From assembly GCA_021525805.1 (NCBI GenBank), contig GCA_021525805.1_3940.1: a stretch of DNA of 64,000 nucleotides; one strand, given 5' to 3'. The DNA comes from a phage. Position numbers and translations under genes: made by a program. The notes under the pieces were generated by a model. That model ran no database searches and had not been told where the DNA came from. It was given only the letters and a program-made list of their open reading frames with translations. Every line of letters begins with the position of its first letter. Within the stretch, counting starts at the first letter, position 1. Positions 15,143 through 15,546 of the stretch are shown here, one piece after another.

Positions 15143-15171
15143 TTGACATTTAGATGTGACCACTTTATAGT
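15143..15171 (+). promoter_or_regulatory. strong sigma70-type promoter
   Basis: TTGACA 15143-15148, 17-nt spacer, TATAGT 15166-15171. Confidence 0.6.
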
Positions 15172-15464
15172 AACTAAAATACTTCATAATATGTATAATT
15201 CAAACACCAATACATGAGCGTTAGACGTAACACAATGTGGGGAAATTTGTTGTACATATTCTGAATAGTTTTCGTTGCGTAGCGTCTATTTTGCAAATTT
15301 AAAATAAATGCAAACGACAATGTTTTTCTGGCAGTAGCTTGATAGGCTAAACACCAGTGAGGTCTTCCAATCCCTCATCAAAGAATTTGGCGTACTCGCC
15401 CACGGTATGATTAATAAGGTGGGCATCTTTAAGGGCTTTCTAAGAGAGTCTTTAAAGATAATTA

Positions 15465-15546
15465 CGGGGCGTATCTCAGCGGTCTTCTAAACCGCCGTTA
15501 ACCGAGTAAGTGGAGTATGCGGGTTCGAGTCCTGCCGCCTCGACCA
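15465..15546 (+). ncRNA. atypical tRNA-like element (acceptor stem + T-arm + one internal hairpin GCGGT-CTTCTAA-ACCGC; no recognisable D-arm)
   Basis: acceptor CGGGGCG/CGCCTCG, T-arm GCGGGTTCGAGTCCTGC, CCA encoded; internal loop would read anticodon TCT (Arg) but architecture is non-canonical. Confidence 0.4.

Follow-up and report, generated by a model that had tools for sequence, protein, structure and literature searches.

A conserved phage RNA family with a tmRNA-like tag template and an arm complementary to host tmRNA

Almost all bacteria rescue ribosomes with tmRNA, and this pathway influences how a phage infection ends; the classic examples are lambda-P22 hybrids and Mu. Many anti-phage toxins cut mRNAs or tRNAs and so leave stalled ribosomes on which tmRNA acts. 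In Alpha- and Betaproteobacteria, cyanobacteria and marine phages, a two-piece tmRNA is found. Both pieces come from one gene: the coding piece gives the 5' acceptor strand, and the pieces pair via the acceptor stem and P2. The T4 species 1 and species 2 RNAs are stable non-tRNA RNAs encoded among phage tRNA genes; their function is unknown, and we know of no relation between them and tmRNA. Several E. coli prophage RNAs pair with host RNAs, among them the anti-sRNAs AgvB and AsxR and, near the Q antiterminator gene, PasD and STnc100. A preprint on Pas and STnc100 RNAs covers neighbouring prophage sRNAs and mentions neither tmRNA/ssrA nor the phage RNA family described here (10.64898/2026.05.13.724894). 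Mycobacteriophage DS6A carries a tmRNA fragment that consists of the tRNA-like domain (TLD) only and is thought to inhibit tmRNA (Hudson, Lau and Williams 2014, PMC4131195).

We analysed a 64,000-nt stretch of DNA (the window) whose phage is Felix O1-like. Inside its tRNA cluster, about 290 nt without a conserved ORF follow a promoter, and positions 15266-15424 belong to a conserved RNA family. The features of the locus are these:

15143..15171, + strand: predicted sigma-70-type promoter (TTGACA 15143-15148, 17-nt spacer, TATAGT 15166-15171; 11/12 match).
15175..15265, + strand: lineage-specific insertion of ~90 nt between promoter and conserved RNA, outside the conserved family.
15266..15293, + strand: antisense arm TAGTTTTCGTTGCGTAGCGTCTATTTT, complementary to host tmRNA nt 81-106.
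15294..15309, + strand: single-stranded linker ending AUAAAU, which supplies U(-5) and A(-4) ahead of the resume codon.
15310..15345, + strand: tag reading frame without a start codon, GCA AAC GAC AAT GTT TTT CTG GCA GTA GCT = ANDNVFLAVA, then TGA TAG.
15328..15357, + strand: helix-5-like hairpin around the tag end (CTGG/CCAG, 15328-31/15354-57; TAGCTT/AGGCTA, 15335-40/15344-49).
15358..15390, + strand: H-type pseudoknot (stem 1 TGAGG/CCTCA, 15358-62/15373-77; stem 2 CCAA, in the loop at 15367-70, with TTGG, 15387-90).
15398..15424, + strand: terminal hairpin (GCCCAC/GTGGGC, 15398-15403/15419-15424) with the conserved loop GGTATGATTAATAAG.
15425..15459, + strand: 3' hairpin of ~16 bp (ATCTTTAAGGGCTTTC ... 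GAGAGTCTTTAAAGAT), a predicted fold kept in Bas63.

The initial annotation had reported TTGACA, a 17-nt spacer and TATAGT, all of which are present at 15143-15171. It had also called this the best promoter match in the window, which a two-strand scan does not bear out: there are six 11/12 sites and zero 12/12 sites. Between 10 and 22 kb we found 29 promoter-like sites against 29.2 expected by chance; their number being at chance level, the hexamers alone prove nothing. The window promoter, which sits between the element and the upstream tRNA-Lys, is kept in relatives such as Bas63. In two Felix-like relatives, L030 and L026, the ~90-nt insertion is missing, and the same -10 box lies 5 nt upstream of TAGTTTTCGT, directly before the conserved RNA. 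From the promoter position we predict that transcription starts at about 15177-15179. The RNA would be ~290 nt long in the window; its minimal form elsewhere is ~170-190 nt. Sf11 has a separate predicted promoter (TTGACA-17-TAGATT) just upstream of the RNA and its arm, an analogous predicted promoter precedes the RNA in SKML-39, and in the N4-like phage SP-058 a predicted intrinsic terminator follows it. The insertion is predicted to fold as a long hairpin (~15183-15264), and phages JL1 and PYps3T contain similar sequence. In most Felixounavirus records the match to the region is split in two, at 73% coverage. At the other end, the hairpin at 15425..15459 is restricted to Felix-like phages and absent from other lineages; it probably forms a 3'-end or processing structure ahead of the next tRNA-like gene.

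Does the region encode a protein or a tRNA? The initial annotation had seen neither an ORF nor a canonical tRNA here, and we agree on both counts: overlapping ORFs are all of 48 aa or fewer, and ARAGORN called nothing in 15127-15786. A 46-aa minus-strand ORF (15286-15426) is the "hypothetical protein" of some annotators, the Bas63 record included; we rejected it as a gene because other lineages have stop codons in the homologous frame. An overlapping ATG frame (MQT...) was set aside as not conserved. An Rfam search, which the initial annotation had suggested, was run and returned only tRNAs at gathering thresholds; in E-value mode, sub-threshold tmRNA-family matches lay over the tag stretch, together with chance miRNA matches. 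No complete tmRNA was found by ARAGORN in the window or in homologous loci. Positions 15465-15543 gave a marginal Rfam tRNA match (31.7 bits), the gene there being non-canonical and tRNA-like.

The family occurs in at least 700 phage records: blastn matched its core in 615-706 of the 50,697 searched, and also in 137 of the 5,426 E. coli genomes. Carriers include Felixounavirus, Kolesnikvirus, Ackermannviridae, Schitoviridae, Cedarrivervirus and Hendrixvirinae, and the groups concerned (Ounavirinae, Ackermannviridae, N4-like phages, siphoviruses and lambdoid prophages) are unrelated. At every locus inspected or listed the family is without annotation, except that a "hypothetical protein" has been placed on it in a few cases, and we came across no account of it in full-text literature searches. 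In lambdoid phages and prophages the element lies between Q and the holin gene, in the late leader; phage P22 lacks it. PasD and STnc100 occupy this same Q-to-holin interval, and they share with the prophage anti-sRNAs and, as we propose, the present family a pairing with host RNAs. AgvB, AsxR, PasD and STnc100 are nevertheless different sequences, none of which appeared at E <=1 in Rfam searches of the window or the lambdoid loci, and none is reported to target tmRNA or to bear a tag template. The 3' neighbouring module in lambdoid loci weakly resembles STnc100 (10.64898/2026.05.13.724894). The resemblance to the T4 species 1 and 2 RNAs is one of setting, in that a non-tRNA RNA is encoded among phage tRNA genes.

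What might such an RNA do? Judging from sequence, we favor, with a probability of about 0.55, an RNA that acts in trans: it would base-pair with host tmRNA, block the tag template there and possibly offer its own instead. The RNA would be transcribed either from a sigma-70 promoter of its own or, in lambdoid phages, within the late leader. Its unstructured 5' arm would pair with host tmRNA nt 81-106 (68-106 in other lineages), a normally single-stranded stretch that holds U85/A86, the resume codon and tag codons 1-6, and this pairing would block use of the host tag template. Since the arm is antiparallel to its target, the phage template would exit the duplex on the PK1-proximal side. That template, made up of AUAAAU-GCA, a 10-codon degron-like ORF with its stop in a helix-5-like loop, and a pseudoknot, may be read by ribosomes rescued by host alanyl-tmRNA/SmpB, in which case the phage tag would replace ANDENYALAA. 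Expression of the RNA, its pairing with tmRNA in vivo and whatever it does to trans-translation are what we infer here. The tag frame and the antisense arm had both been missed in the initial annotation.

In tmRNA, A86 (-4) is essential and U85 is highly conserved (PMC2481249). The phage RNA has AUAAAU-GCA without a start codon, with U(-5) and A(-4) placed as U85 and A86. AAAT before GCA is invariant in a 24-sequence alignment (A3); AAAT was also the search anchor for the other family alignments. No conserved intramolecular structure is predicted in the linker or upstream of it. The tag frame shows conservation of a coding type. We observed 17 tag variants, every one of 10 aa and of the form AN[DE]...[AV]A, and variability is concentrated at third codon positions. 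The pN/pS ratio is 0.52 in the tag frame versus 1.04 and 0.84 in the other frames, a moderate signal that is based on only 30 nt. The Rfam models tmRNA, tmRNA_permuted and beta_tmRNA all align to this stretch below threshold: RF00023 scores 8.8-22 bits against a gathering score of 47, and RF04321 scores 20.3-21.1 bits against 47, its alignment being limited to the template. The phage tags occur in none of 117 tmRNAs of Enterobacterales, Pasteurellales and Orbales. Hence, the module was not acquired recently from host ssrA.

Downstream of the linker, the family has a conserved structure. The degron-like 10-aa tag ends in the helix-5-like hairpin, with the stop codon TGA at its apex. The two helices of this hairpin are paired in 100% and 91% of alignment cells, and there are compensatory changes, for example CTGA/TCAG in Sf11 and SP-058. 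The pseudoknot stems are paired in 100% and 99% of cells, and both sides have changed in 5 of 9 pairs; stem 1 occurs as TGAGG/CCTCA, TAGGG/CCCTA and CAAGG/CCTTG, and stem 2 as CCAA/TTGG, CCAG/CTGG and CCGA/TCGG. Overall, 97.2% of cells are paired and both-side changes are seen in 8 of 18 pairs. None of 500 shuffles was as good, and slid controls were 28-52% paired. What the initial annotation had described as a T-arm-like GAGGTCTTCCAATCCCTC is actually stem 1 and the loop of this pseudoknot, compensatory changes included. The GCCCAC...GTGGGC hairpin that it had named is real: in the family, the almost invariant TGATTAATAA loop is borne on 22 different stems, which vary in both sequence and length.

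The likeness to tmRNA (SsrA, RF00023) thus lies in a GCA resume codon that follows U(-5)A(-4) without a start codon, in a 10-codon tag that starts AND or ANE and ends in small hydrophobic residues and Ala, and in a stop codon within a helix-5-like hairpin loop followed by a pseudoknot. The differences are as clear. PK1 is absent, and in place of PK2-PK4 a single downstream pseudoknot is supported, with no conserved structure upstream. There is no tRNA-like domain: the 5' and 3' ends form no acceptor stem, and both T arm and CCA are missing. Hence, the RNA is not a tmRNA. It also has an arm antisense to tmRNA, and we know of no tmRNA that carries one. The circularly permuted, two-piece tmRNA (RF04321) is similar in that a template RNA is separate from the 3' acceptor/T-arm piece and joined to it by base pairing only, and the phage linker and tag start (UAAAUGCAAACGA) resemble the RF04321 consensus. 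The phage element, however, encodes no acceptor piece: we found no such piece upstream, no T arm or CCA, and no flanking acceptor strands in the window or homologous loci. Its predicted partner is instead the template region of host tmRNA. Two candidates for the missing domain were rejected. The tRNA-like gene at 15465-15546 has G3:U70, A73 and CCA, but it is an independent family that occurs in other phages without the RNA; most Felixounaviruses have an ordinary tRNA-Arg at that position. G3:U70 is missing from the lambdoid tRNA-like 3' modules (GTTGTGG...CCACAAC), and no such module exists in the N4-like and Felix-like versions. With DS6A the family shares a partial, phage-borne tmRNA and a suspected interference with host trans-translation. 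The two are built the opposite way, DS6A having a tRNA-like domain without a template and the phage family a template without a tRNA-like domain, plus the antisense arm.

Perhaps the tag frame is never translated? The RNA would then be a pure inhibitor or decoy that pairs with host tmRNA or titrates binders of the mRNA-like domain (S1), and conservation of the tag frame would reflect RNA-level constraints or ancestry. The complementarity of the arm to tmRNA and the missing tRNA-like domain fit this, and the TLD-only fragment of DS6A shows that partial tmRNAs exist in phages (PMC4131195). We nonetheless consider it rather unlikely, given 17 tags with third-position variation, a fixed length and a tmRNA-like amino-acid pattern. 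U(-5)A(-4), the stop in the helix-5-like loop and the pseudoknot are kept as well, and a simple antisense RNA needs none of them. Under our preferred reading, in which the RNA blocks the host template, the furthest step would be tag swapping in trans: the arm would dock on the template region of host tmRNA and supply a replacement template, so that rescued chains receive a phage tag. We put this forward tentatively, as a possibility with the odds against it; to our knowledge, reading of a tag from a template supplied in trans has no precedent, and this counts against it. Were swapping to occur, the tags to look for would, just as tentatively, be ANDNVFLAVA here and ...LAVA or ...LMAA elsewhere, not ANDENYALAA.

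The arm is complementary to host tmRNA. In local alignment it is collinear with the reverse complement of E. coli ssrA, and its target, nt 81-106, comprises the A-run, U85/A86, the resume codon at G90 and codons 1-6; in other lineages the target spans 68-106. For the window arm, 0 of 2000 shuffles matched the alignment score. Ten arms were tested in all: in eight, 0-3 of 2000 shuffles reached the score, while SKML-39 (18/2000) and HK633 (8/2000) were weaker. BLAST of the single window arm against ssrA was not significant (E = 2.8). The case for the arm rests on the family as a whole, whose members are related and hence not independent tests. Across the family, predicted duplexes reach -24 to -29 kcal/mol with a 47-nt host target and -27 to -42 kcal/mol with 78 nt, although z-scores against shuffles are modest (window, -1.9; Erwinia phage, -1.7). 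Cofolding at full length retained the arm:tmRNA duplex, with a net gain that ranged from -6 kcal/mol in the window, the smallest, to -16.5 kcal/mol. In Ounavirinae the arm is shorter, ~28 nt with internal loops, and because of the ~90-nt insertion the window arm is not 5'-terminal, unlike those of other lineages. We also considered 15350-15369 against tmRNA 203-222, and 16053-16079 against tmRNA 116-143, as antisense matches; BLAST was not significant or unreported, and both were dropped.

The arm is thus conserved and unstructured and has extended complementarity to a conserved target. The sequence it targets is the one most often found among Enterobacterales tmRNAs, in a sample in which the tmRNA of the exact host (Salmonella) was not identified. 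It is almost invariant in hosts, so host-specific covariation between arm and target is uninformative. Divergent tmRNA templates do occur, in Yersinia (ANDSQYESAALAA) and in Pasteurellaceae (ANDEQYALAA). The phage template itself has AAU for GUC before the resume codon and differs from the host template in codons 3-6. It differs exactly where the arm pairs and would therefore be immune to its own arm.

We wondered if the arm might instead act within its own RNA, as a self-mask or scaffold on the resume region, with host complementarity a by-product of ancestry and the RNA having some different role such as protein binding or RNA stability. The minimum-energy fold of the window does pair part of the arm with its own linker and resume codon, and the element has the look of a tmRNA segment duplicated in inverted orientation. 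However, the window arm forms a duplex of -27.2 kcal/mol with host tmRNA versus -14.9 kcal/mol with the phage's own template. Mean energies are -16.3 kcal/mol against a phage's own template and -15.3 kcal/mol against the templates of other lineages; the own-template duplexes are no stronger, so the arm has no self-specificity. RNAalifold found no conserved intramolecular pairing over the arm (-0.04), and the arm motif AGTTTTCGT is near-invariant across the family, whereas codons 4-6 of the phage's own frame vary freely. On these energies, the lack of self-specificity and the lack of a conserved structure, we rejected pairing of the arm with its own template, and an intramolecular role in general seems to us improbable. 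The likeness of the arm to antisense tmRNA could still date from an ancestral inverted duplication and be conserved today for a different reason.

Could the region simply be a leader or spacer in a tRNA operon, its hairpins being processing or termination signals for neighbouring tRNA genes? It does lie in a tRNA cluster with a tRNA-like gene immediately downstream, and the 3' hairpin at 15425-15459 is similar to hairpins in other gaps of the cluster. The family, though, is not confined to tRNA-gene gaps or to close relatives. The same RNA occurs in lambdoid late leaders, including the HK633 locus, where no tRNA genes were called; it has its own predicted promoter in Sf11 and its own predicted terminator in SP-058; and it is 70-80% identical between unrelated phages whose flanks are unrelated. 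We regard this explanation as very improbable. The initial annotation had offered "small RNA or leader". The first half is supported, for this is a conserved, structured, non-coding RNA with its own predicted promoter in the window, in Sf11 and in SKML-39. A plain tRNA precursor leader does not account for conservation across unrelated phages, covariation and tmRNA-related content. Two further ideas are equally hard to credit, a formerly complete phage tmRNA gene in decay and a minus-strand gene for a small protein: complete tmRNA genes are present in ~2% of phage genomes (PMC9004378) and a hypothetical protein is annotated in Bas63 and other records, yet the element shows covariation and conservation over hundreds of phages of several families, has no acceptor strands beside it, and loses the minus-strand frame to stops in other lineages.

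Our preferred reading, an RNA that pairs with host tmRNA and blocks its template, suggests phage interference with ribosome rescue in the bacterial host. In practical terms, hundreds of genome records have no annotation, or a spurious "hypothetical protein", at this locus, and the hypothesis is directly testable with established coliphages (Bas63, Felix O1, Sf11 and HK633) and existing ssrA genetics. If true, some of the "gaps" left without annotation in phage tRNA clusters and lambdoid late leaders would be accounted for. A viral strategy aimed at the tmRNA pathway would also come to light, based on an RNA family retained by, or passed between, several unrelated enterobacterial phage groups. 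Should tag swapping prove real, host and virus together would form a heterologous "two-piece tmRNA", and these would be the first viruses to reprogram what trans-translation writes.

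The window comes from a Felix O1-like phage (Felixounavirus). The region from 13800 to 18800 is 94-97% identical to Salmonella and Escherichia Felixounaviruses and holds a cluster of 22 tRNA genes, all on the plus strand (ARAGORN). The conserved phage RNA (window copy 15266-15424) lies in a gap of this cluster, laid out as follows:

15051-15127, plus strand: tRNA-Lys(UUU), 5' neighbor of the gap
15143-15148 and 15166-15171: promoter, TTGACA, 17 nt, TATAGT (score 11/12)
15175-15265: hairpin-forming insertion of ~90 nt with long inverted-repeat arms, between promoter and arm
15266-15293: core part 1, 5' arm, starting (U)AGUUUUCGU; no conserved intramolecular structure (RNAalifold)
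core part 2: linker ending AAAU 5' of GCA
15310-15345: core part 3, 10-codon tag frame
core part 4: hairpin around the tag end, stop codon at its apex
core part 5: H-type pseudoknot
core part 6: hairpin with conserved loop GUGUGAUUAAUAA
15465-15546: marginal tRNA-like gene, 3' neighbor of the gap (Rfam tRNA model, 31.7 bits; no ARAGORN call)

The initial annotation took this promoter for the best match in the window. The site is there, but its top score is tied with five others, and the region holds as many promoter-like sites as shuffles predict. Hence, the hexamers alone are weak evidence. The promoter is kept in phage Bas63, an identical -10 box stands directly 5' of the conserved RNA in two Felix-like relatives, and the homologous RNAs of Sf11 (a siphovirus) and SKML-39 (Ackermannviridae) have their own upstream TTGACA/TTGTCA promoters. 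The interval was rightly described as ORF-free, all overlapping ORFs being of 48 aa or less. Unlike in relatives, including many Felixounaviruses, the ~90-nt insertion separates arm from promoter in the window. Sequences 82-85% identical to it occur in vB_EcoM_JL1 and PYps3T, which are unrelated phages, and it may represent a small mobile hairpin.

Sensitive blastn matched 15301-15425 to sequences of unrelated phages at 71-81% identity. We fetched loci from HK633 (lambdoid, Hendrixvirinae), SKML-39 and selz (Ackermannviridae), an Erwinia Kolesnikvirus, Sf11 (Cedarrivervirus), FSL SP-058 (Schitoviridae), and IMG/VR contigs; an HMM of the core found 91 copies in them and exactly one in the window. 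As blastn queries, the Sf11 copy had matches in 706 of 50,697 phage records and a lambdoid copy in 137 of 5,426 complete E. coli genomes. Almost no record carries an annotation at the element site. P22, a phage with small-RNA data, does not have the element. In the two lambdoid loci inspected, it lies in an unannotated interval of ~1 kb from the Q antiterminator gene to the holin gene. In lambdoid prophages (loci L010, 4650-5760, and L002, 2750-3560, among them) the element forms part of a larger late-leader RNA, in which long helices GGTAAGAGCATT...AGTGCTCTTTCC are repeated around variable inserts, some with T-arm-like pieces; its 3' module, GTGGTGAATGCGCAGGCTGATGCGC...CCACCACAA plus a terminator, is weakly like the prophage small RNA STnc100 (20 bits, E = 0.07).

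What does the core encode? Read in frame, 15310-15345 is GCA AAC GAC AAT GTT TTT CTG GCA GTA GCT TGA TAG, or ANDNVFLAVA and two stops, with no start codon and with AUAAAU directly before it. By sequence, this frame closely resembles the tmRNA tag template, which in E. coli is AUAGUC GCA AAC GAC GAA AAC UAC GCU UUA GCA GCU UAA UAA (ANDENYALAA). The Rfam tmRNA and permuted-tmRNA models align exactly to the tag stretch, at 9-22 bits, far below the threshold of 47. U(-5) and A(-4) of the phage linker are the counterparts of tmRNA U85 and A86, the latter nearly universal and essential in frame selection (PMC2481249), and the stop codon at a hairpin apex is as in tmRNA helix 5. The family has 17 tag variants, all of 10 aa and of the form AN[DE]...[AV]A, including ANDNVFLAVA, ANDEQFLAVA, ANEEMYLAVA, ANDDVVLMAA, and ANDDLMLMAA. 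Synonymous codon variants occur (GTT/GTC/GTA, CTG/TTG, GAG/GAA), most of the variability in codons 2-4 and 10 falls on the third position, and pN/pS is 0.52 in the tag frame versus 1.04 and 0.84 in the other two.

Over 24 aligned sequences, pairing in the helix-5-like hairpin and pseudoknot reaches 97.2%, with both-sided changes in 8 of 18 pairs; no shuffle attained these values, and slid controls fell to 28-52%. The terminal hairpin has 22 different stems, which covary around a constant loop. Both hairpins singled out by the initial annotation are real, this being one of them; the stretch it labeled T-arm-like is instead stem 1 and loop of the pseudoknot. From pairing, covariation, and tag frame together, we conclude that the core is a real structured RNA with a tmRNA-type template module. 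As a side observation, the invariant terminal loop GAUUAAUAA (15404-15418) repeats the UUAAUAA double stop of E. coli tmRNA, and its UGAUUAA is complementary to UUAAUCA, also present in that tmRNA; both 7-mer matches could be chance.

The phage RNA is not a tmRNA. It has no tRNA-like domain, ARAGORN made no tmRNA call across all loci, and the two ends are unpaired. The Sf11 copy starts with the arm, and the N4-like copy ends ~85 nt past the hairpin in an intrinsic terminator. We considered the gene at 15465-15546 as the tRNA-like domain and rejected it: it is a separate family, and Klebsiella phage KNP2, jumbo phage PBECO4, and phage SD2 have the gene without the RNA. Most Felixounaviruses have a canonical tRNA-Arg(UCU) in its place. 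The gene itself is non-canonical: its acceptor stem of 7 bp includes G3:U70, A73 and CCA are encoded, and the T arm is normal, but a 23-nt region precedes the T arm and no D arm is present. The anticodon loop is CUUCUAA (UCU, Arg). The KNP2, PBECO4, and SD2 homologues are 83-89% identical, the anticodon stem covaries, and G3:U70 occurs in three of four copies; an alanine identity element beside an Arg anticodon is an intriguing pairing.

The cluster has other tRNA-like features. At 14825-14912, only 3 nt separate a T arm and 3' acceptor strand (GAAGGTTCGATTCCTTC ACTCGAC A) from the 5' acceptor strand that matches them, after which come a D arm and a long arm like that of an anticodon (GTCGAGT TG GTGTAATGGTAGCAC TT AAGATGA...TCATCTT). 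The stretch resembles a split or circularly permuted tRNA gene, and neither ARAGORN nor Rfam made a call there. A cloverleaf-like fold at 15690-15776 (8-bp acceptor stem, T arm GGGGUUCAACUCCUC, anticodon arm with 9-nt loop CUUCCAACA) has no ARAGORN tRNA call and a fold z-score of only -1.4. Over 93 nt, two copies of a Ser-type tRNA with long variable arm differ only in the anticodon, which is GCT in the window (18551-18643) and TCT in Bas63 (5397-5489 of the fetched locus). The Bas63 copy, serine-type in its body, would read the Arg codons AGA/AGG.

In sequence, the arm is antisense to host tmRNA. Its UAGUUUUCGU is exactly complementary to codons 3-6 of the E. coli tag, ACGAAAACUA (ssrA, the tmRNA gene, taken from an E. 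coli genome). In all lineages the arm aligns collinearly with tmRNA nt 68-106 in reverse complement (nt 81-106 in the window), for example AGTTTTCGTCACGTTAGCGAC-----TTTGCGGACTTTTTA versus AGTTTTCGT--CGTTTGCGACTATTTTTTGCGG-CTTTTTA. For 8 of 10 arms tested, 0-3 of 2,000 shuffles reached the observed score; SKML-39 (18/2,000) and HK633 (8/2,000) were weaker. Duplex energies with host tmRNA are -24 to -29 kcal/mol on a 47-nt target and -27 to -42 on 78 nt. Cofolding full RNA with full tmRNA keeps the duplex, with a net gain of -6 kcal/mol in the window; the gain is largest, up to -16.5, in Sf11 and a lambdoid copy. Across the family the arm motif hardly changes, whereas phage codons 4-6 vary freely. 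The target, ...AUAGUCGCAAACGACGAAAACUAC, is the commonest form in 117 tmRNAs of Enterobacterales and relatives; it is near-invariant among the phage hosts and thus offers no host-specific variation for an arm to track. The window arm alone is not significant against ssrA by BLAST (E = 2.8), its duplex z-score versus shuffles is modest, and family members, being related, are not independent tests. Phage and host templates differ exactly at the arm-pairing sites (AAU for GUC 5' of the resume codon; codons 3-6), and the phage template is predicted to be immune to its own arm. None of the 117 bacterial tags is identical to a phage tag; hence, the module is not a recent host ssrA capture.

Another gap of the cluster holds a long hairpin (16037-16136) with chance-level miRNA matches in Rfam. 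Its 5' arm (16053-16079) has a weak, tentative antisense likeness to tmRNA nt 116-143, a stretch spanning the stop codons and helix 5 (local score 29; no BLAST report at E ≤50).

We propose as the best-supported reading, with a probability of roughly 0.55, that the phage RNA acts in trans, pairing with host tmRNA where the template lies exposed and interfering with that tmRNA. At a minimum, pairing would hide six codons together with U85/A86 and the resume codon, and the duplex might be open to RNase III. With arm and target running antiparallel, the phage linker and resume codon would exit the duplex beside host PK1, the usual start of the host template. This geometry, the retained U(-5)A(-4), self-immunity, and a tag conserved in the manner of a coding sequence make tag swapping, by substitution of the phage template for the host's in trans, a serious, if less probable, possibility within this reading. 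Slightly less probable again is a pure inhibitor or decoy, against which the coding-type conservation speaks. An intramolecular role of the arm is unlikely: mean duplex energies are -16.3 with the phage's own template and -15.3 with those of other lineages, so the arm is not co-adapted to its own template. The element does occupy one of several gaps of the tRNA cluster, but a mere operon spacer is very improbable for a covarying structured RNA. Equally improbable are a decayed tmRNA, given the covariation and the conservation seen in hundreds of phages, and a minus-strand ORF, called "hypothetical protein" in some records; in other lineages, stop codons disrupt its homologous frame.

Complete one-piece and two-piece tmRNAs occur in ~2% of phage genomes (PMC9004378); the phage RNA differs in being template only, without the tRNA-like domain. 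The tmRNA fragment of mycobacteriophage DS6A (PMC4131195) is the converse, keeping that domain without the template. Prophage small RNAs near Q (STnc100/PasD, AgvB, AsxR) are a different set, and a recent preprint on Pas small RNAs mentions neither tmRNA nor ssrA (10.64898/2026.05.13.724894). A template-only RNA with an anti-tmRNA arm was not found in Rfam 15 or in full-text literature searches. The initial observation holds, and the original suggestion of a small RNA gains support and becomes much sharper. The function proposed here is inferred. The phage RNA belongs to a widespread, undescribed family in which a tag template of tmRNA type stands beside an arm complementary to host tmRNA.
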